Part shown: positions 2,743-43,550 of the stretch, in pieces | Layout of the letters: each line of letters opens with the position of its first letter | How positions within the stretch are numbered: the stretch's first letter is position 1 | Virus record (IMG/VR): IMGVR_UViG_3300048691_000224 | Origin: a virus | Taxonomy: Duplodnaviria; Caudoviricetes | DNA length: 64,000 nucleotides | Direction: 5' to 3' (one strand) | Made by a program: the position numbers and the translations under genes | The notes under the pieces: generated by a model | Told to the model about the DNA's origin: nothing | The model's database searches: none | The model's input: the letters and a program-made list of their open reading frames with translations, nothing else

Positions 2743-2780
2743 TTGACCTCATTCAGTTTTGGGGTATAATAGACCCTAAG
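2743..2780 (+). promoter_or_regulatory. Sigma70-type early promoter with overlapping dyad operator (copy 1)
   Basis: TTGACC-N16-TATAAT; TTGGGGT-ATAATAG-ACCCTAA. Confidence 0.85.
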
Positions 2781-2803
2781 TTCACCACTAATAAAGGAAA
2801 ATT

Positions 2804-3151
2804 ATGAATCTAGAAACACTGCAATGCATTGCTCGCATCAATACTTTAGTATCGTACATTGCTGATTCTTGGTCTGATGAAGAAATCAGCTCTTATCTAA
2901 ATGCGGATATTCTCCAGGCCTTCGTAACTGAACTCGCAACTGCGGAAGCACTGCGTGCCAGCGCTCTCATTGAATTAGAGAACACCGCTCGTGAAAACGC
3001 CAAGAAGGCAGCGCTCGTGAAAATCGAAGAATTGATGAGAAGTGCACAGGAAATTGCCACCGCTGCGGGTGTTCCCTTTGTCGTACCCACGACTGAAAAA
3101 GCGGAAGAATTTGAAGAATCAGATTCTTGGTCGAATTCAAATTGCTACTGA
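2804..3151 (+). CDS. Small helical protein with an acidic C-terminal tail ending EESDSWSNSNCY
   Basis: RBS AAAGGA. The segment AQEIATAAGVPF resembles AEIIADKAGVSF of ORF 20864..21106. Confidence 0.75.
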   Translation: MNLETLQCIARINTLVSYIADSWSDEEISSYLNADILQAFVTELATAEALRASALIELENTARENAKKAALVKIEELMRSAQEIATAAGVPFVVPTTEKAEEFEESDSWSNSNCY

Positions 3152-3152
3152 T

Positions 3153-4127
3153 ATGAAGATCGCCATTATCGGGTCGACAGCACTGGCCCGTTTCTTGCCA
3201 CTCCGAGTCCCAAAAGACTTGGACATTGTTGGTTCGTACGACGACATCATTAAATACTGTAACCATAAAGTGGTAGAGTACGGTGGTAAGATTGTCGCAC
3301 AATACCCCGCATCTGGTGGCAATAAGCTGATCACAAAGATTGATTCAGGCTTACGCACTCTGATTATTGAGGCTGAGATCGCGTGGTCGGGATCACTCTC
3401 GGAAGAATTGCTCGAGATGATTATTGGGGATGTGTGCACAAAATCTAAATATGACACAACTTCCCCAGATAAACTCGGATATTCTCACACCATTGTAGAA
3501 TACTATCCATCGATCGACATCCTGTATATGCTCAAGATGTCGCACCGATATCTAAAAAATTCTCCACACTTTCTGAAGACGATGGAAGATATCCACACCC
3601 TGCGCTCAATGGGTGCACATATTCGTGAGTGTGATCAAGAATTCTATGCGAAGCGCATGGAAGCAACGTATAGTTATTCTCACCCCAGCCTGATGAAATC
3701 GACTTCTGAATTTTTCTCTGGTGATGGGGTTGAGTACAAATATTGTCATGATGACGTCCACATCGCCGTAGCAATTCTCAGTAGACCAGCATATACATTC
3801 TACCAGAAAGCTGGTGCTGAGGTTCAGTGTTGTAAGGAAAAGTTTTTTGCTGTGCATTCAGAAGTTCGTCTATATGGGGTTCTGGAAGAGGCATACGTGC
3901 TTGCTCTTGAGCGCTCAATTATTCCGTTTGGAACTGAGCCATCAAAGGCGTTTAAGATGGCACTGATGAAAGTCTGTACATCCATCACTTCTGGCTGGTT
4001 TCGTGAATTTGCATACGAGCACTACTATGAGGTGTGCAACTTGTATGAGATGATGGGTGATAGGTTCGTGCGTGATTTTCATTATGCGCACCGTATTGGC
4101 GCAGTTAGATTTTTCTCTCCCCCATGA
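3153..4127 (+). CDS. Putative Pol-beta-superfamily nucleotidyltransferase-like protein with a large helical C-terminal domain
   Basis: ATG at 3153 follows the upstream stop by 1 nt. N-terminal IIGSTALARF...PKDLDIVG fits the GS...DxD motif; C-terminal motifs YCHDDVH, EEAYVLALERS, TSGWFREF. Confidence 0.6.
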   Translation: MKIAIIGSTALARFLPLRVPKDLDIVGSYDDIIKYCNHKVVEYGGKIVAQYPASGGNKLITKIDSGLRTLIIEAEIAWSGSLSEELLEMIIGDVCTKSKYDTTSPDKLGYSHTIVEYYPSIDILYMLKMSHRYLKNSPHFLKTMEDIHTLRSMGAHIRECDQEFYAKRMEATYSYSHPSLMKSTSEFFSGDGVEYKYCHDDVHIAVAILSRPAYTFYQKAGAEVQCCKEKFFAVHSEVRLYGVLEEAYVLALERSIIPFGTEPSKAFKMALMKVCTSITSGWFREFAYEHYYEVCNLYEMMGDRFVRDFHYAHRIGAVRFFSPP

Positions 4128-4330
4128 TTACCACCGCAGTAAAAGACTATTTGGGAAATGTACTGTCTGTGGGTGACGAGGTGGTATTTGTTCAACAAAA
4201 TTACCGCAACTACTTACGAGGTACCATAACCACATTTACCCCAAAGTTTGTTCGGATTAGTTGGACAACTGGCTCAGACACTCAGCAAATTTTACAGACT
4301 GGGAGTCAGTTAATCAAAGTGTTAAAATAA
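4124..4330 (+). CDS. Small hypothetical phage protein (SH3/KOW-like)
   Basis: KDYLGNVLSVGDEVVF motif; ATGA overlap. Confidence 0.55.
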   Translation: MITTAVKDYLGNVLSVGDEVVFVQQNYRNYLRGTITTFTPKFVRISWTTGSDTQQILQTGSQLIKVLK

Positions 4331-4357
4331 AAAAAGGCTCCTTCAAGGAGCCTTTTT
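4331..4357. terminator. Bidirectional intrinsic terminator
   Basis: A5-GGCTCCTT-C-AAGGAGCC-T5 between convergent genes. Confidence 0.85.
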
Positions 4358-4371
4358 ATTGGTTGGGTAAA

Positions 4372-4848
4372 TTATTTTTGTGCTTCGGGCGCAGCGATGC
4401 GAACCACATCAAGGGAGCTGAGACCTTCCATAGCAGCACCAGTATCAGCAGCACCCTTGGTCGCATTCACTAAACCGAGAGCACCATTGATGCGCAGACC
4501 ATACAGACCCAGTGCAGTTTTGGTGATATCCTTAAATACTTCCATAGCTTCATTCACAGGTGCAGCAATTGTGGGTGCAGCACTCTGAGTCACAGCACCT
4601 GATGCAGCCTTCATGTTGGAGAATGTTAAGAATGCACCCATACGGCACATATCCGTGTCACACTTAGCTCCAACATCAGAAGCCGCTTTGGAAAGAGCCT
4701 TATCAGCATCTGCCTTTTGTTGAGCCTCGGAAATGCCTCGCTGGCTGGCTGCTGTGTGTGCTGCGACATATGCATCATTGCCGTTTGTTGCACAACCCAT
4801 TATCACAGCCGCACACAGTGCGATTAACGTAAGTTTCAAATAGTTCAT
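4372..4848 (-). CDS. Late-expressed lipoprotein
   Basis: Lipobox signal MNYLKLTLIALCAAVIMG-C; Ala-rich helical body; TATAAATA on the minus strand at 4879-4886. Confidence 0.75.
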   Translation of the reverse strand: MNYLKLTLIALCAAVIMGCATNGNDAYVAAHTAASQRGISEAQQKADADKALSKAASDVGAKCDTDMCRMGAFLTFSNMKAASGAVTQSAAPTIAAPVNEAMEVFKDITKTALGLYGLRINGALGLVNATKGAADTGAAMEGLSSLDVVRIAAPEAQK

Positions 4849-5295: not shown

Positions 5296-5502
5296 ATGAA
5301 ATCACCGATCTTTACACAGTTGACACAACTTGATATCGCAGTTTTGATCTCCGCCCTTGGTGACTTCGAACTGAAATCCGATAATAACTCAATCGCCGCC
5401 AACCGAAATGGTGATGATGAGAAGGCAGCGCGCTGCATGCAATCCTCAATGGCAGCATTCAAATTACGCCGCCAATTAATGGACAGTGCACAAAATGGGT
5501 AA
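5296..5502 (+). CDS. Hypothetical protein
   Basis: RBS GGAGAG; follows the promoter. Confidence 0.6.
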   Translation: MKSPIFTQLTQLDIAVLISALGDFELKSDNNSIAANRNGDDEKAARCMQSSMAAFKLRRQLMDSAQNG

Positions 5503-5947
5503 TATTACCCGCCGCGCAGGGCTGATCCCATACCTCTTTAGCCCGAATGGGCAGCTTGTGATGGGATTTATGGTTCCATCAGATTCAGCATTCGGTGGCA
5601 TGATGCCACAAATTGCAAAAGGAACTGTGGATGATGGTGAAACTGACCTACAGGCAGCGATGCGTGAGTGTGAGGAAGAACTAGGCGTAAGTAGCGCACA
5701 CTACGCATCAACACCGCACTTAGTAGCAACGTCTGTTGGCAACACCCCATTAGTGGTGTATGCTGTCAATATTCTAACTTGCACTAATTTAAACGAACCA
5801 CACTTCGAAACTGGTCGAGTTGTGTTTCTCACCGCCGATGAATTCTATGCAATTGGTCGTGATTGGCAACGCCTTGCGGTATCAGAGATCGCGAATAAAC
5901 TCGAATCTGGCCACCGCATCACTAAACCACGAAGCTTTCGCAAATAA
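5495..5947 (+). CDS. Nudix hydrolase
   Basis: Nudix box KGTVDDGETDLQAAMRECEEELG; paralog of 46161..46628 (shared MPQIAKG). Confidence 0.9.
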   Translation: MGNITRRAGLIPYLFSPNGQLVMGFMVPSDSAFGGMMPQIAKGTVDDGETDLQAAMRECEEELGVSSAHYASTPHLVATSVGNTPLVVYAVNILTCTNLNEPHFETGRVVFLTADEFYAIGRDWQRLAVSEIANKLESGHRITKPRSFRK

Positions 5948-5967
5948 TAACCCAACCTATTCTTCCT

Positions 5968-7854
5968 ATGGATACTACACAAAAATTAGCACTGTACACC
6001 GAGGCTAAAGACGCCTACTACAACACTGGCACACCTCTCATGTCTGATGCAGAGTTTGATGCGCTTGAGTTAGACCTCATCGATTCAGGCGCACTCACTA
6101 TGACTAAAGTGGGAGCGCCTGAACGCGCGGGTAAGGTAGCACTACCCACACCAATGGGATCATTGGACCAATTGCGTACAAATGCTGAAATTCTTCGTTG
6201 GACGAGCAAATATCCTGGAGAGGTGATCGTCATCAGCGAGAAAATTGACGGCAACAGTTTACTACTGCAGTACAAGTCAGGGGTATTGGTTGGATCATTC
6301 TCTCGTGGTGACGGGCTCCGAGGCGCAAATAACCTGCGACACTCACAGCATATCACATCAGTCATTACCAAACTCCCATTTCAATACACTGGCACAATTC
6401 GTGGTGAAGTTGTTGTGGCGAAAGCTGACTGGAGCACAATTCAATCAATTGCTGCTGCTTCTGGAAAGGTCTACGCCAACTCACGCAACTTTGTAGCTGG
6501 ATTCATGAATGCTTCAGAGTCTGACCTTGCGATCTACAAATATCTAACATTTGTGGCATACCAGGTCACTCCAAGTCACTCTACCCCTTTGGACAAGTTG
6601 GATCAATTTGCGCTATTACAGCGCGGTGGCTTCACAATTCCTACAGTCGTGCAGTATGTTGCACACGCAGTCAATGAAAATCGCCTGATTGAGTTGACGA
6701 AAAATATGATCACACAATCTCGATATGAGCTCGATGGTTGTGTTGCTGAAATCAATTCGAGTCGCTTTCATTCGATTCCGACAGATCCCACCAATCTCAA
6801 CCCTCCACACGGTCGTAAATTCAAAGTCATCTCAGATGCCGCAAGCGCTGTGACCACCGTGACTCACGTTGAATGGAATATATCCAAGCACGGATTACTG
6901 AAGCCTCTCATTCACTTTACCCCAATCTCACTCGATGGAGCTACGATTACTAAGGCGACGGGACACAACGCACGAATGATGCAAGACAAACAAATCGGAG
7001 AGGGCGCGGTAATTCGCATCGCTCGATCAGGCGGCGTGATTCCAAAATTAGTTGATGTCATCAATCCTGGAAACTTTGTGTTGCCACCCGATTGTACGTG
7101 GAATGGAGCAGGAGTAGAATTGGTTAGTGCGACAGCATCATCACCAACCGAAGAGATTGAAAAACTAGCATACTTTTTTCAAAAGTTGGAGGTTGATGGA
7201 GCAAGCATTGGTGCTGCAGAAAAGTTACACAGTGCAGGATTGACCACGTGGATCGCGGTTGTGACTGCTCCTCAAGAAACTTACACTCAGGTGATTGGAA
7301 AGGCTAATGGAGCAAAGATCTTCAAAAACTTACACGCCGCACTCGATGAAGTATTGTTCGCCAAGTTTGCAGCGGCGTGTTGTGTATTTGATCGCGGAAT
7401 TGGCGAGCGCAAGCTAACAGATGTTATCAACCAATTGAAACTCACTGATCACTATCAAGTTCTTCTCCAACCACGCTCAGCATTCTTGGAGCTTGATGGC
7501 ATCCAAGCAACGTCTGCGGATAAATTGGTAGCAGGATTAGCCGAGTTGCACAAGCAGTTGAAAACACTCGAAAATGCATCATCCACAAAAATTTCATTCA
7601 CCCGCAGCGTGCCTGTTAAGAGTGTTACTTCAGGTGCACTTATTAATCAAGTGATTTGTACGACAGGTGTCAGACTGAGTCCAGAACAGAAGGACAGTAT
7701 AGTAGCACTCGGTGGAGAAGTGACAGATACACTTTCAACTGCAGTTACTATCCTGGTAGCAAAGGATCCTGACAGTACAAGCGCTAAGATTGTAAAAGCT
7801 AGATCTCGTGGAGTGACAGTCATGTCCCTTGCTGATTTTGTGGCTAAACTCTAA
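5968..7854 (+). CDS. ligA: NAD-dependent DNA ligase with C-terminal BRCT
   Basis: MSDAEFDALE, PMGSL, active site EKIDGNS, SRGDG, RGEVV, NSRNFVAG, ELDGCV, OB-fold RSGGVIPK, HhH region, BRCT (LGGEVTDTLS...LVA...SAKIVKARSRGVTVM). Confidence 0.97.
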   Translation: MDTTQKLALYTEAKDAYYNTGTPLMSDAEFDALELDLIDSGALTMTKVGAPERAGKVALPTPMGSLDQLRTNAEILRWTSKYPGEVIVISEKIDGNSLLLQYKSGVLVGSFSRGDGLRGANNLRHSQHITSVITKLPFQYTGTIRGEVVVAKADWSTIQSIAAASGKVYANSRNFVAGFMNASESDLAIYKYLTFVAYQVTPSHSTPLDKLDQFALLQRGGFTIPTVVQYVAHAVNENRLIELTKNMITQSRYELDGCVAEINSSRFHSIPTDPTNLNPPHGRKFKVISDAASAVTTVTHVEWNISKHGLLKPLIHFTPISLDGATITKATGHNARMMQDKQIGEGAVIRIARSGGVIPKLVDVINPGNFVLPPDCTWNGAGVELVSATASSPTEEIEKLAYFFQKLEVDGASIGAAEKLHSAGLTTWIAVVTAPQETYTQVIGKANGAKIFKNLHAALDEVLFAKFAAACCVFDRGIGERKLTDVINQLKLTDHYQVLLQPRSAFLELDGIQATSADKLVAGLAELHKQLKTLENASSTKISFTRSVPVKSVTSGALINQVICTTGVRLSPEQKDSIVALGGEVTDTLSTAVTILVAKDPDSTSAKIVKARSRGVTVMSLADFVAKL

Positions 7855-15499: not shown

Positions 15500-16894
15500 A
15501 TGCGCACATCTTCTATCCCTAACATGAAGTCTATTTTATTGAATGTAGACAGCTATAAAGTTTCCATGTGGAAACAACACCCACCTGGTACAAAGAAAGT
15601 ATATTCTTATGTAGAGTCCCGTGGTGGTCGTTACACAAATACAGTGTTCTTTGGGTTACAAACCTTCGTCAAGGAATATCTACTCACACCCTTCACACAA
15701 GCAGATCTGGATTTTGCAAATAAATTCTGGACAGCTCACGGTGAACCATTCAACTACGATGGCTGGAAGTACATTTTGGATGTGCACGGTGGATACTTAC
15801 CGCTGGCCATCTCTGCGCCTGAAGAAGGAACAGTAATTCCTTATAAAAATGTTCTGGCTACTGTCGTAAACACAGACGACAATGTGCCATGGTTGACTAC
15901 TTGGGTCGAGACAGCAATGTTGCGTGCAATTTGGTACGGTACGACAGTAGCATCACAATCCTGGACAATCAAACAGATCATCTTAGATTACCTTGAAAAA
16001 TCTGGAACACCCGAATCAATAGGGTACAAATTACACGATTTTGGAAGTCGTGGGGTGTCATCATTCGAATCAGCCGGCTTGGGTGCTTGCGCTCATTTGG
16101 TGAACTTCTCGGGTACAGATACTGCAACCGGTCTATTGTATGCACACGTGTACTACGGTGCTGATTTGGCGACTACTGCTCATTCTATACCCGCCTCTGA
16201 ACACAGCACAATTACATCCTGGGGTCGTGATAATGAACGTGATGCGTATGCAAATATCATCAAACAGTTCAATAAGCCTGGAGCACTATTCGCCTGTGTG
16301 AGTGATTCATATGATATCTATGCTGCATGTAGAATGTGGGGATCTCTGAAGTCAGAATTAGAAGCAGGTGGTGGTACACTGGTAATCCGTCCAGACTCTG
16401 GTGATCCACTCGATGTACTTCCTAAGATGTTGACAATTCTTGAGAAAGAATTCGGAGTTACTAAAAACTCCAAAGGTTACAAGGTACTCAATACTGTACG
16501 GCTGTTGTGGGGTGATGGTATTGATGAGCTGTCTATCCGATCCATTCTCCGTACGGTAGTAGACTTACACGGATTCTCTGCCGACAACATCGCATTTGGT
16601 ATGGGTGGAAAACTCTTACAAATTGTTGACCGCGACACTAACAAATTTGCAATGAAGGCTTCAGCAGCACTGATTGGTGATGACTGGGTTGATGTGTTCA
16701 AAGATCCAGTCACAGATCAAGGAAAATCTTCAAAGAAAGGTTTGGTCACATTGTACAAGGGTGCTGATGGCAAATATTTTACCGCCCTAATTGACCCATT
16801 GTACGAATCTGAACTCCAACTTGTGTTTAGAGATGGGGTACTGATGCGAGATATGGATCTTGAACGCGTTCGAGCTAATTCTGATAAACGCTAA
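15500..16894 (+). CDS. nadV: Nicotinamide phosphoribosyltransferase (NAMPT)
   Basis: DSYK, YVESRGG, FFGLQ, LHDFGSRG, SIPASEHS, SDSYD, IRPDSGDP, GDGI, FGMGG, KDPVTD. Confidence 0.96.
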   Translation: MRTSSIPNMKSILLNVDSYKVSMWKQHPPGTKKVYSYVESRGGRYTNTVFFGLQTFVKEYLLTPFTQADLDFANKFWTAHGEPFNYDGWKYILDVHGGYLPLAISAPEEGTVIPYKNVLATVVNTDDNVPWLTTWVETAMLRAIWYGTTVASQSWTIKQIILDYLEKSGTPESIGYKLHDFGSRGVSSFESAGLGACAHLVNFSGTDTATGLLYAHVYYGADLATTAHSIPASEHSTITSWGRDNERDAYANIIKQFNKPGALFACVSDSYDIYAACRMWGSLKSELEAGGGTLVIRPDSGDPLDVLPKMLTILEKEFGVTKNSKGYKVLNTVRLLWGDGIDELSIRSILRTVVDLHGFSADNIAFGMGGKLLQIVDRDTNKFAMKASAALIGDDWVDVFKDPVTDQGKSSKKGLVTLYKGADGKYFTALIDPLYESELQLVFRDGVLMRDMDLERVRANSDKR

Positions 16895-20292: not shown

Positions 20293-20910
20293 ATGTTTAA
20301 TAGAATCAAACAATACATCAACAAGTTCACTGTACGCCGAAGGGAAACTTCGCCAAGTATCAGTGAACTTGTTATATTTGACGGTGATCAGACTCCTCCT
20401 GATACGTTCACGCGACTGTACCGACCAAACCAAGCCCACTGCAAGTATATTTGGGTCACTGTCACTACCATTCCGAGAGTAGTAAAGCACACCTCTGTAG
20501 AAGTTATCAAACCTTCATCGGTTGGCAAAGAGGCTACAGACACACAAATCGCGCTTTCGGTGTTTAATTCGTTGACCACAACTCCAAACATCACTAAAGT
20601 CTTTATTGTATCATCTGATGGTGATTTCATTGATGTCATAATCAATCTCTCGAGGTATTTTCCGACCATTAAATTTGTACTCGTTGATGATCAAAAGCAT
20701 CCAACATCAAAGGCATCTGGAATTGCTCGGCGAACACTTTCACTACGGTTCACAAATTGTAGTGTGGTTAGACTCAAGAGATCACAACCAAAGAAACTCT
20801 CACCCCCACTGGAGAATATAGAGTTACCTAACTCTCACCAGACTACAACCGCAAAAGGAACAAATGCAAGAAACCCAAGACCCCCGCAAAATAGCGTACG
20901 CCCAAATTGA
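20293..20910 (+). CDS. NYN/PIN-like ribonuclease-domain protein
   Basis: FDGDQ, GKEATD, IVSSDGDF acidic motifs. Confidence 0.75.
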   Translation: MFNRIKQYINKFTVRRRETSPSISELVIFDGDQTPPDTFTRLYRPNQAHCKYIWVTVTTIPRVVKHTSVEVIKPSSVGKEATDTQIALSVFNSLTTTPNITKVFIVSSDGDFIDVIINLSRYFPTIKFVLVDDQKHPTSKASGIARRTLSLRFTNCSVVRLKRSQPKKLSPPLENIELPNSHQTTTAKGTNARNPRPPQNSVRPN

Positions 20911-21106
20911 AGCAAAGTTGCACGAAATTGCAGTGCTGTACGCTGAGGCTGAGATAATCGCAGACAAAGCGGGAGTATCATTCAGCACATCTGGCCCATC
21001 ATATGGAATGGGTGGATACTACCAACCTAAAGCTAACCCGACCACAGGTTGGTCAGCCTCCGACGATGATGAGACTGGTTGGGTTTCTTCTAGCAACAAC
21101 TGTTGA
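20864..21106 (+). CDS. Small protein ending GWVSSSNNC, paralog of 2804..3151
   Basis: RBS AAAGGA; helical N-terminus, GPSYGMGGYY, acidic W/S-rich Cys-terminated tail. Confidence 0.75.
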   Translation: MQETQDPRKIAYAQIEAKLHEIAVLYAEAEIIADKAGVSFSTSGPSYGMGGYYQPKANPTTGWSASDDDETGWVSSSNNC

Positions 21107-21396: not shown

Positions 21397-21729
21397 ATGC
21401 ACTTTTTGACAAACCCACTAGCAGACCTATTATACTACAACCAGAAGGATATTCTACAAACACAAGCGCTAGATGATCACCACCGCCGACAAAAATTCTG
21501 CGAAAATGATAAAAGCATTTGGCGGAAGTATTTTTTACTAAAAGAAATTCATCCTGATGACTTGCATGCACTCAATCGTGGATTCGAGAGTTGCTGGGTG
21601 ATACTATCTGAGGTCGATGATTTAATTATTGGCTCTCGCAATTGCAATCAATTGGTATTGAATACAATCCGGCACACCACAGGCGGAATTGAGTTTATCA
21701 TTCCCAAATTAGAATACAAGACAACATGA
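21397..21729 (+). CDS. Hypothetical protein
   Basis: ORF track; ATGA overlap with the next gene. Confidence 0.55.
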   Translation: MHFLTNPLADLLYYNQKDILQTQALDDHHRRQKFCENDKSIWRKYFLLKEIHPDDLHALNRGFESCWVILSEVDDLIIGSRNCNQLVLNTIRHTTGGIEFIIPKLEYKTT

Positions 21730-22313
21730 TCCACACGACACCATCAGAAATTGCTCGCTACTTGGCAGACAACTTCACGGGATCCACTGACAGAGCAATT
21801 GTGTTGATGGTTGGGATACCTGGTTCTGGCAAGACGACAATTATCAATCAAATCATCCCAGAATATTACAAAATGCTCTCGGATAGTGACCAAGCGGTTG
21901 GGCTTACGGCCGTCAGTACTGATGCTATAATTGAACAGCACGGTGTCGATAATAACTTAAACTACAGTGAAGCATTTGAAGTAATAGACAGTAAACTAGT
22001 CACCACGTTGTTTAATGATATGTTACTCAGCTCAACAAACAGCCGCGAGAATATTATCATCGACCAAACGAATGTGGGAGTCAAATCCCGCAATCGAAAA
22101 ATCCGACACATACAGAACGCAAATTCTTGCTACAAACCAATTATTATCTGCGTATCACCCCCGTCTAGGTTTGAGTTGGAACGACGGTTGCAAGCTCGGA
22201 GCACCGAGACAGGTAAACACATTCCCGTCTCAGTGATTGATCAGATGACACGCGACTTTACAGGACAGTGCCCTGAAGATATCTGTCAAACGTGGTTTGA
22301 AATTATTAACTGA
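21726..22313 (+). CDS. P-loop kinase (AAA_33/polynucleotide kinase-like)
   Basis: Walker A MVGIPGSGKTT, VSTDAII, IIIDQTN, lid R..AR...IP. Confidence 0.85.
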   Translation: MIHTTPSEIARYLADNFTGSTDRAIVLMVGIPGSGKTTIINQIIPEYYKMLSDSDQAVGLTAVSTDAIIEQHGVDNNLNYSEAFEVIDSKLVTTLFNDMLLSSTNSRENIIIDQTNVGVKSRNRKIRHIQNANSCYKPIIICVSPPSRFELERRLQARSTETGKHIPVSVIDQMTRDFTGQCPEDICQTWFEIIN

Positions 22314-26572: not shown

Positions 26573-26893
26573 ATGTCACAATTCAAATACTCATACGAAA
26601 CTGAAGCTCAATTTGAAGCGCGTAAAGCACAAGATGCTGCAGAAATGAAAGCAATTGCAGACCGTAAATCAGCATTCTATTCCGAAATGCGCGCAGTGAT
26701 GGAAAAGTACGGCGCAGAGTTTGATGTGCGCGTATCGGCCCGTGATTACTACACATCTGTAGATGGAATTGATATCTCAATCAAACAGTTTGAGTTTCAA
26801 CGTGAGGGTGAGTGGTGTTGCGCGTTCCCTAAGGAAGACGAGTTTTCTACAAATATCACCGCGGAAGATATGGCAACTGTAATATTTAAGTAA
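26573..26893 (+). CDS. Early hypothetical protein
   Basis: Follows promoter copy 4. Confidence 0.65.
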   Translation: MSQFKYSYETEAQFEARKAQDAAEMKAIADRKSAFYSEMRAVMEKYGAEFDVRVSARDYYTSVDGIDISIKQFEFQREGEWCCAFPKEDEFSTNITAEDMATVIFK

Positions 26894-41288: not shown

Positions 41289-43550
41289 TTAGGGAATAGC
41301 AAATGTTTTGACAAATACGTGAGTACCACAATCATATATTTTGTGGTATCCGTTATTGTGCATATTGACCGCCTCTGTGAGGTTGGGATCGAATACCGCC
41401 AGCATTTTCGATAACTTGTGTTTTTGGAACTGGGTGCGGTTAAATCGCTTTGTGTAATTCCCACCATCCCCTTTAGTGGATTTGACGTACTGATATGCTG
41501 GTTTGCTGGAGTGCAATAGTGTGAATCCGAGAGCGTTGTACAACCCTCCTGTCGAGTAACGTCTATCGGCATATGATATTATGCTGGTGGGCTTGTACTC
41601 GGTTGAGAAGTGTGATAGTAGTTTAGCTGCACCACCGACGATTTGTGTGTTGAGTTTTGTGCAAAATCTATACATTTCATACTCATAATTTTTGTTAAAC
41701 CTCGATTTGCCAAAAGTCATTACAGCCGTTAGTTTGTTGTCGTACATCAGTCCTAATCGGACAGAACTTGAATCAGCCCCTTGAATGTGGTTGGCAGCTA
41801 AAAATTGATTACACTCAGTGGCCGTTAGTTGCACAACCTGGCACTTACGAGCATATACCCTAACTTCGAATATTCCCAACTTAGCATTGATCACTGATTT
41901 AACAATATCTGATTTATTGTCCCATTCATCTTCAAACACGTGGAGTAGCTGGACCCCCGCTGCTTCACACGCTAGTGTCTTGTTTAGGTGATACCCAGCA
42001 TCAATTTTCGTGTAGTTGTGTACACTGTGCCAAAATAATCCATTGAACTCTATAGCTACTGATTTATCTGGGATAAACACGTCTAGCTCGCGAGGCGCTA
42101 TTATTTTTCTGGTATTTTCAACAAATTTAATATGATTTGACGCCAAGTGTTCTGTAATCTGCTTTTCCTTTCTGTTTCTACCTCCAAACAATGGATAACA
42201 TGTCAGACATCTTGGGGTACTACCATCCATCAACATCGATAAGAAACCAGTACTACAATCGACACACTTGTATGGCATCGGTTCTGTTCGGTGTGTATAA
42301 TCACCGACTTCATATTCGGGAGTTATTTGATTAGAAATGTTCTCCATCCGGTTCGGCCACCACCTATCGATCCTGGTCTTCTGGGCGCGCTCAGCGATCG
42401 CCGCAACCTTTTGGATTTCCCCAAAATTTGAAACTCCATATTTGTCTGCTAAAGTAGATTTAACTTTGGCTTGGATGATGGGGCTAGAACCAGCGCGCTC
42501 GCTACCATAATTTTCCAACATGTGAGCTCGAATGTTCTCGGATATAGTGGGATCGTGTAAAGGTGTGATCGCTCCATATCTAGCTAAACAGGTTTCATTT
42601 TTACGTTGCTTGACATCTGAATTTCTCGCAGAAGTAATATCTCCATACTTCTCCATGCACGTGGCCAATCTTTTTGCTTCCACCTCGGGGTGCCGACTTC
42701 GGCACGTGGGTGAGCACCAGGGTAAGAATGTTGCCTTATTGCTACTCCACAACACTTCTGTAGCATTACATACTCCACAACACTTCGCCGGCCCCGACGG
42801 CCGAATCCTAGCATCTCTTGCCAGCTCTCGACCAGTCTGTTTAACTAACTGAGCTAATCGCTTCTTCTCCACTTCGCGCTGCTTTCGTTCGTGGGTCTTT
42901 GCTAGTTTATCCTCTTTTGTCTTTTTGTGAGTATCGTGCTGATCAGCCATGTAATCTCGCCCAGTTCGAACCCAGTAAATTCGCTCTTTTAGCTGATAAG
43001 CTTCTGGAAGGTGCTTAGTCATATCTTTGATTTTGTTATACTCAGCTCGATACTTTGGTGCAAAAGTACGCATGTCAAACTTTGAATCCAATGAAGCAAG
43101 GACCAACCTAACTTGAGATTCGCTGCACACAACGTTTTGTCGTGTACTTGCCGCACACTCTACTGAGCACGTCGTTCGCCACCTACCACCCACTGATGTC
43201 CATATTACTGGTTTATCGCAAGATGGTACTGAGCACGTCGGCGGCTTCCCATGTAGTGGAGCCTTCTGAGCAGCGATCCAGCGGGCAGAGCAAGTCATCC
43301 CACAAAATTTCCTGTAGTTTTGTGTGACGATGTCCCATTTCACACTATTAGTGCAATTTGCACATTTTGGTATGGCAAAGCAACTATTCCAAAAATGCCA
43401 CAATCGTTGTGTGGAAGAAACTCCTGGAGGCAGAAATTCAGTAGTATCTACAATGTACTCATACGCTTCTGGGTATTTCTTGGGTAAATGCGTTGTTTTC
43501 GTTGTTTTATATTCTTCTAATATATTGGTAAAATTGGGGATGTGTGTCAT
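41289..43550 (-). mobile_element. Free-standing Hef-like homing endonuclease (Cys-rich repeats + PD-(D/E)xK/Vsr-like nuclease + Mom-like GNAT domain)
   Basis: Repeated CxxC...C-S/G-xx-C knuckles; ELDVFIP...AIEFNGLFWHS...HVFEDEW; ARKC...FL..NHIQG...RFC...GGAAKLL...ISYADRR...GGLY..LGF; inserted antisense. Confidence 0.8.

Follow-up and report, generated by a model that had tools for sequence, protein, structure and literature searches.

A phage-borne nucleotidyltransferase-like enzyme linked to small proteins that share a W-x-x-S-x(1-3)-C tail

Introduction

Nucleotidyltransferases (NTases) that nucleotidylate a small partner protein are exemplified by GlnD, which acts on PII, and by the MNT-HEPN pairs, in which the HEPN toxin is AMPylated. 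A related layout is found in MenA1-MenT1, the other MenAT systems and AbiEi-AbiEii (DUF1814), where the NTase is bilobed, its N-terminal lobe being a Pol-beta core and its helical C-terminal lobe contributing Lys and Asp residues; in MenAT1 the gene immediately upstream of the enzyme gene encodes a small helical partner (PMC10435456). Here we analyzed a locus at positions 2743-4127 of a 64,000-nucleotide (nt) stretch of Caudoviricetes DNA (IMG/VR record IMGVR_UViG_3300048691_000224), hereafter referred to as the window, whose numbering and strand we use throughout. The locus encodes a 115-aa Cys-tailed small protein, P0001 (2804-3151, + strand), and a 324-aa NTase-like enzyme, P0002 (3153-4127, + strand), and the original prediction proposed that the enzyme modifies the tail of the small protein or uses it as a primer.

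We found that the two proteins represent a diverged copy of a conserved two-part module that is essentially phage-only and whose parts are linked in both directions across unrelated phages. The known kind of system to which it belongs is an NTase with a small partner protein, with a real chance of something more distinct. GlnD-PII and MNT-HEPN serve as a working analogy, in that a Pol-beta-fold enzyme encoded beside a small partner acts on a defined residue, and the phage pair may follow the same pattern.

Results and Discussion

The enzyme and its small partners in phage genomes

We scanned 80 IMG/VR loci that carry the enzyme in all six frames, keeping stop-to-stop frames of at least 40 aa and counting a frame as motif-ended when it finished in W-x-x-S-x(1-3)-C, followed by no more than two residues. 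The enzyme strand held 168 motif-ended frames and the opposite strand held 1, so the tail motif did not arise by chance. At least one such frame was present in 71 of the 80 loci, and three of the nine loci without one have less than 400 nt of upstream sequence. When only motif-bearing open reading frames (ORFs) with an ATG start were considered, 148 of 159 ended within 2 kb upstream of the enzyme, with 1-6 per locus and a median length of 87 aa. The linkage also held in the reverse direction, as all eight sampled partners (8/8) had the enzyme within three genes downstream; in three of these eight, which come from short contigs, the enzyme was confirmed by a truncated downstream ORF that matched the enzyme profile. 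The linkage of the two genes put forward in the original prediction was therefore borne out by co-occurrence from both sides.

The partners differ in body but not in their ending. A typical partner consists of a helix, a G-h-x-F strand, a YGMGGxY block, an acidic linker and the tail GW-x-[PS]-S-S-x-x-C; such partners belong to phrog_899 (function unknown) and to no Pfam family. Partner length ranges from 65 to 140 aa and the bodies are conserved, but they diverge to about 30% identity while the W, S and C of the tail stay invariant, which makes the tail the most conserved part. Cys is the last residue in 143 of the 152 unique partners and three end in CY; the spacer between Ser and Cys is 3 residues long in 105 of them, 1 in 42 and 2 in 5, and some partners carry the motif twice in tandem. 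The W-x-x-S-x(1-3)-C tail behaves like a shared tag. A profile of canonical partners, made from 23 sequences and run against 1.84 billion representatives, gave matches that form 986 clusters at 50% identity, and the eight partners sampled above were taken from along its match list.

The number of partners and their distance from the enzyme vary between phages. Ralstonia phage RsoM2USA has two small genes upstream of the enzyme, ending in ...GWYPSSQSC and ...YWMGSSC, and rV5-like phAPEC8 has partners gp188, gp190 and gp191 followed by the enzyme gp192. The T4-like Dhakavirus MX01 has four partners (ORF126-129) and then the enzyme (ORF122), with three unrelated small genes separating the array from the enzyme. 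The same partner-enzyme arrangement is found in Pseudomonas phage Kremar, and in four complete phage genomes the phrog_899 matches sit only beside the enzyme. The carriers include T4-like, rV5-like, Otagovirus-like, Pseudomonas and Ralstonia jumbo phages as well as uncultured contigs, and their other genes differ. The enzyme family comprises at least 2375 clusters at 90% identity and is present in 730 GenBank phage records, whereas it is nearly absent from cellular genomes, with 6 hits in 185,579 species genomes. All six lie on contigs of metagenome-assembled genomes, and there is therefore no sign of a chromosomal toxin-antitoxin system.

We also observed genes for HisRS-like fragments, the peptidyl-tRNA hydrolase PTH2, an RlaP-like NTase and phosphatases near the module in three of the loci (L092, L095 and L085). 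In other phages the neighbours of the module often concern tRNA or nucleotides, which hints at a role related to RNA.

P0001 as a probable diverged member of the partner family

Ordinary searches leave P0001 an orphan. It had no tblastn match in 50,697 phage records and nothing significant in Pfam or PHROG, where the phrog_899 model was not reached at E 0.1 or better, and a search of 5.8 billion proteins returned only a 99%-identical copy. The WzzB/FepE label that this copy bears as its JGI name is probably a coiled-coil artefact. The link to the partner family draws on genomic context, a custom profile and BLASTP. A family hidden Markov model (HMM) built from 120 partners was searched against about 1100 window frames, and P0001 was its second-best match: residues 65-114 matched at E 3e-5 against all frames, a value that became 1e-3 once the tails had been taken out of the model. 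Within this match, the helix and strand of the model correspond to residues 65-94 (KKAALVKIEELMRSAQEIATAAGVPFVV), and the tail-less body of P0001 matched two array members by BLASTP at 2e-5 and 6e-5 (database of 154 sequences). The description of P0001 as helical in the original prediction is in keeping with the alignment of residues 65-94 to the helix of the family model.

The C-terminus of P0001 reads ...EEFEESDSWSNSNCY, with SWSNSNCY as the final residues. The tail codons (3128-3148, + strand) specify W109-S-N-S112-N-C114-Y115, that is, W-x-x-S-x-C plus one residue, which places P0001 among the short-spacer tails but with a single residue added, a feature of the 3 other partners ending in CY. 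An orthologue of P0001 that adjoins a 76%-identical enzyme ends in SWSSSNCY. Besides the extra terminal Tyr, P0001 differs from typical partners in its 60-residue N-terminal extension and in the absence of the YGMGG block. Judged from its sequence, P0001 is probably a diverged family member in body as well as tail.

The best family match in the window is encoded elsewhere. The canonical member (20864-21106, + strand) is 80 aa long and consists of a helix, GVSF, YGMGGYY, an acidic linker and the ending GWVSSSNNC; it matched phrog_899 at E 7e-15 and the family HMM at E 1e-20. No second enzyme was found near this copy, which lies 17 kb from P0002. Its gene overlaps the end of an ORF with a NYN domain (RNase-like; 20293-20910), and an AAA_33 or zeta-toxin-like P-loop kinase is encoded two genes after it (21726-22313), giving this neighbourhood an RNA-metabolism flavour. 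A 106-aa ORF (26573-26893) behind another promoter-like site (26510) matched the helix-strand body of the family weakly (E about 1e-3, all window frames) and has no W...C tail; it is possibly a tail-less relative.

The enzyme and its NTase domain

The 324-aa protein with a GS...DLD motif on which the original prediction was built is indeed encoded at 3153-4127, with the N-terminus MKIAIIGSTALARFLPLRVPKDLDIV. In Pfam it matched DUF7277 (PF23942; residues 5-89) at E 1.4e-9 and DUF7275 (PF23940; residues 123-302) at E 3.6e-66, and in PHROG it matched phrog_2141 at E 1.3e-91. The signature of Pol-beta-type NTases is hG[GS]...DxD...E, and P0002 has an intact GS...DLD...ExE in its N-terminal domain (3153-3500, + strand; G7, S8, D22, D24, E73 and E75). 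The 36 aligned homologues all have G7, S8, D22 and D24, and nearly all have E73 and E75, a pattern repeated in 79 further loci.

The AlphaFold model of P0002 was of high confidence (predicted local distance difference test, pLDDT, 92; predicted template modelling score, pTM, 0.86). Its best match among solved folds was MenT1 (8an4; Foldseek E 4.5e-6, Z 7.5, 159 aligned residues, root-mean-square deviation 4.3), followed by TglT/MenT3 (6j7n; Z 7.3), Helicobacter pylori JHP933 (Z 7.2) and MenT4 (Z 6.3), with ANT(2'') (Z 6.0) and LnuA (Z 5.2) lower. In the AlphaFold database the first named families to match were ‘AbiEii/AbiGii toxin’ NTases, at E 7e-6 to 4e-4. The fold comparisons together with the retained catalytic residues support a bilobed NTase fold with intact metal ligands, as the original prediction expected. 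However, P0002 had no match to Pfam AbiEii (PF08843) at E 1 or better, and a profile search of all Protein Data Bank (PDB) sequences gave no relation to any solved MenT at E 10 or better. Because the Z values are modest and a sequence-level relation to solved proteins is lacking, we describe the modelled P0002 as MenT/AbiEii-like in architecture and not as a member of either family.

The all-helical C-terminal domain (DUF7275; 3501-4127, + strand) accounts for the most conserved part of P0002, its last 200 residues. K128, H131, K142, H199-D200-x-x-H203, E245, E246, E253, R254, K273 and R284 were identical in all 79 loci (79/79). Folded alone, the domain was again confidently modelled (pLDDT 90), but against solved structures the best VIA match had Z 4.4 and the best Foldseek E was 0.44. 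We recovered no relative in a profile search of PDB sequences, uncharacterised relatives only in the AlphaFold database, and sub-threshold leads only in the ESM Atlas. An HD, HEPN or zincin identity was rejected, as no solved-fold match exceeded these values. The R132-x6-H139 spacing is present in the sequence of the domain without support from the fold. The invariant HDxxH...EE residues could bind a metal.

The fold matches raise the possibility that the pair works as MenAT1 does. In that case the enzyme would act on RNA, for example on host or phage tRNA 3' ends, and the small helical proteins would regulate it non-covalently, switching it off, on or between targets, with the tail plugging the active site or mimicking the end of a substrate. 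MenT1, MenT3, MenT4 and AbiEii are the best fold matches, and MenA1, a helical protein of 68 aa encoded upstream of MenT1, lies across the active-site face of its enzyme (PMC10435456, PMC11375011). Gene order and coupling are the same in P0001-P0002, the contacts predicted below go through the partner helix, and an acidic, aromatic tail could mimic a nucleic-acid end. Several features set the phage module apart from MenAT and AbiE. Arrays of 1-6 diverged partners that all keep the invariant W-x-x-S-x(1-3)-C end would be unusual for antitoxins, the sequence and Pfam relationship to MenT and AbiEii is absent, as noted above, and the family is phage-borne rather than chromosomal. The C-domain of P0002 is also much larger than the corresponding lobe and carries invariant HDxxH/EE/KVCTSITSG motifs of its own. 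One defining MenT feature is missing as well: MenT1 T39 and MenT3 S78, two residues before the first Asp, are auto-phosphorylated under the control of the antitoxin (PMC11375011, PMC10435456), whereas the corresponding residue of P0002 is Pro20. Across the 79 loci this position is Pro in 49, Ser in 8, Cys in 6 and Gly in 5, and the known auto-phosphorylation control is therefore not general in this family. Taking both sides together, we consider this main alternative, with RNA as the substrate and non-covalent regulation, possible but rather unlikely; were it correct, phages would widely carry their own regulated tRNA-modifying NTases.

A proposed role for the shared tail

The leading hypothesis, to which we give somewhat less than an even chance and which we infer from the features above, is that P0002 covalently nucleotidylates P0001 at Ser112 or Cys114. 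The first part of the module would be a small acidic protein with an amphipathic helix, a G-h-x-F strand, a flexible acidic linker and a free C-terminus ending in W-x-x-S-x(1-3)-C, and the second part would be P0002, a Pol-beta-superfamily NTase with intact metal-binding residues and a strongly conserved helical C-domain. Partner and enzyme would be made together through coupled translation, the partner helix would dock on the NTase domain, and the tail would be presented to the active site, where the hydroxyl of the invariant Ser or the terminal Cys would receive a nucleotide. One enzyme might serve several different small proteins, because they share the tail. The simplest reading is that the tail would be the shared handle for the enzyme and the helix the docking element, given the invariant W, S and C on diverging bodies, the free C-terminus, the arrays of partners per enzyme and a coupled NTase with intact catalytic residues. 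The proposal departs from both GlnD-PII and MNT-HEPN. Their acceptor is a Tyr on a folded loop or helix, whereas the acceptor proposed here is a Ser or Cys in a C-terminal tail, and no HD, ACT or HEPN domain was recognisable in P0002 by Pfam or by the fold searches with the C-domain.

We predicted the complex from the enzyme alignment and residues 60-115 of P0001, along with three controls. The P0001-P0002 pair scored an interface value (ipSAE) of 0.47 against 0.00 for all three controls, a verdict of weak support. In the benchmark, 58 of 80 solved complexes attained this mark, as did 2 of 110 mismatched pairs, and a pass of 0.60 or lower proves wrong more often than right when the guess was not likely to begin with. 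The confident contacts involve residues 61, 64, 67-68, 71-72, 74-75, 78 and 95 of P0001 and residues 29, 51-53, 55-56, 59, 76 and 78-79 of P0002. The model thus weakly suggests that the two proteins bind each other. In the raw counts W78, which belongs to the predicted docking patch, was retained by 59 of the 79 loci that have a partner and by 1 of the 8 that have none (Fisher p 0.001; p 0.02 after collapsing near-identical loci).

A number of observations weigh against the leading hypothesis. The nearest structural relatives, MenT and AbiEii, have tRNA rather than protein as their substrate (PMC10435456), and the small partners encoded upstream of them act as inhibitors. The predicted complex docks the helix of P0001 but does not place the tail with confidence, and its score is in the weak band. 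On a tree the W78 covariation came down to 4-5 independent contrasts, in which the patch changed with the partner in about 0.8, and the raw association was gone; we withdrew it as evidence for an interface because the phylogenetically independent contrasts were few and unsupportive. Lineages such as MX01 and phAPEC8 lack the docking patch yet keep 3-4 partners. In the window the canonical copy is 17 kb from the enzyme, and adjacency is therefore not obligatory. Finally, Brevibacillus phage Sundance has the enzyme but no W...C-tailed partner upstream.

In Sundance the upstream gene gp88 (2675-2956 of locus L003) encodes a helical protein with an NIPLVV strand and an acidic tail of repeated EEEYSSSYY in which Trp and Cys are absent. 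This protein may represent the partner in a Gram-positive version whose tail differs.

The distant canonical copy, the three unrelated small genes between the MX01 array and its enzyme, and the few enzyme loci without a tailed partner would all fit a looser relationship, in which independent early accessory genes merely travel together in one conserved block of early genes. Such a block is hard to reconcile with a linkage that runs both ways across phages whose other genes differ, with a strand bias of 168 to 1 or with a predicted complex that scored above all controls, and we regard it as very improbable.

The small protein had also been compared in the original prediction with the precursors of ribosomally synthesised and post-translationally modified peptides (RiPPs), with the helix as the leader. 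On this reading the W/S/C tail would be matured, for instance through activation of Ser and closure of a ring with Cys, and a peptide product would be set free. A conserved helix followed by a short conserved C-terminal core, at times in tandem, does fit this layout. The Ser-to-Cys spacings of 2 and 4 residues in the tails fall within the range of lanthionine rings; metal binding by HDxxH...EE of the C-domain, if it occurs, could also be in line with such an enzyme. The remaining evidence does not support the comparison: the partners are 65-140 aa proteins with conserved bodies that often come in arrays, no PqqD-like recognition element, protease, transporter or immunity gene was found in the unit (Pfam gave DUF7277 and DUF7275 only), and the fold searches with the C-domain matched none of the known RiPP enzymes. 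We consider peptide maturation improbable.

Returning to nucleotidylation of the tail, a broader role can be envisaged, albeit tentatively and with considerable doubt, as a tagging system of large phages: the NTase would recognise the common helix on up to six acidic proteins and attach a nucleotide or oligonucleotide to the tail Ser or Cys, and the conjugates would, early in infection, act on targets in the host. A nucleotidylated tail would represent a new type of acceptor, and the enzyme a new family, for protein nucleotidylation. More generally, a C-terminal tag common to arrays of diverging small proteins and accompanied by a single NTase points to a system, specific to phages, that modifies or regulates proteins. 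Among the early genes of large phages labelled ‘hypothetical’, those of both families rank with the commoner ones, and they are carried by the tractable coliphages MX01 and phAPEC8. The families phrog_899, phrog_2141 and DUF7277/DUF7275 are all annotated as being of ‘unknown function’, with P0002 and the product of 20864-21106 as clear members, and a literature search by family identifiers and by concept found nothing on these Pfam and PHROG families or on their pairing. New in this work are the diverged single-copy partner with its CY end and the canonical copy at a distance from it, the counts of linkage in both directions, the missing MenT phospho-acceptor, a C-domain without a recognisable fold, the weak complex prediction mediated by the helix and the negative covariation test.

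Organization of the transcription unit

A sigma-70-type promoter-like site, TTGACC-16 nt-TATAAT (2743-2770, + strand), precedes the P0001 gene and matches the consensus at 11 of 12 positions. It would drive a single transcription unit with a diverged copy of the two-part module. The window holds eight TTGACY-N15-18-TATAAT sites, against 0.1 expected by chance, and all are on the + strand, starting at 2743, 4908, 5235, 9033, 20259, 26510, 27134 and 33192. In five or six of these sites the -10 box and the start site are spanned by a perfect 7-bp palindrome, TTAGGGT-ATAATAG-ACCCTAA. At promoter 2743 the corresponding palindrome (TTGGGGT-ATAATAG-ACCCTAA; 2759-2779) lies across the -10 box with one mismatch and is a possible regulator site, and the palindrome family as a whole is probably bound by a single phage protein that regulates early genes. 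Since most of the promoters carry the -10 palindrome, the earlier description of promoter 2743 as operator-controlled is fair as an account of the sequence only.

A ribosome-binding site, AAGGA (2794-2798, + strand), lies ahead of the P0001 ORF. The P0001 stop codon (TGA, 3149-3151) is separated by a single T from the P0002 ATG at 3153 on the same strand, just as had been noted for the two genes. This 1-nt gap, together with the lack of a clear ribosome-binding site ahead of the P0002 ATG, suggests translational coupling of P0002 with P0001. The last gene of the unit is a 68-aa ORF (4124-4330, + strand; phrog_2251, function unknown) whose ATG overlaps the P0002 stop codon (ATGA). It had no homologue in about 90 loci related to the module and is therefore probably outside the conserved module; we rejected it as a third component on the same ground. 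A symmetric terminator-like hairpin with a 12-bp stem and runs of A and T on both sides (4331-4357, listed on the - strand) ends both the P0001-P0002 unit and a convergent gene (4372-4848, - strand). The latter encodes a 158-aa protein that begins with MNYLKLTLIALCAAVIMGC and has a putative lipoprotein-type signal with a lipobox; it gave no PHROG match.

Other features of the window

The window derives from an uncultured large phage, with P0002 recorded on a contig of 221 kb, and a search of 50,697 phage records gave no DNA match to it. Several genes within 5486-7854 and 15500-16894 are related to NAD, namely a putative Nudix-type ORF (5486-5947), an NAD-dependent DNA ligase that is about 32% identical to the ligases of jumbo phages, and a nicotinamide phosphoribosyltransferase (phrog_448, E 3e-150). 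An HNH or homing endonuclease of 753 aa (41289-43550, - strand; phrog_3339, E 3e-133) lies inside a region that is otherwise on the + strand.

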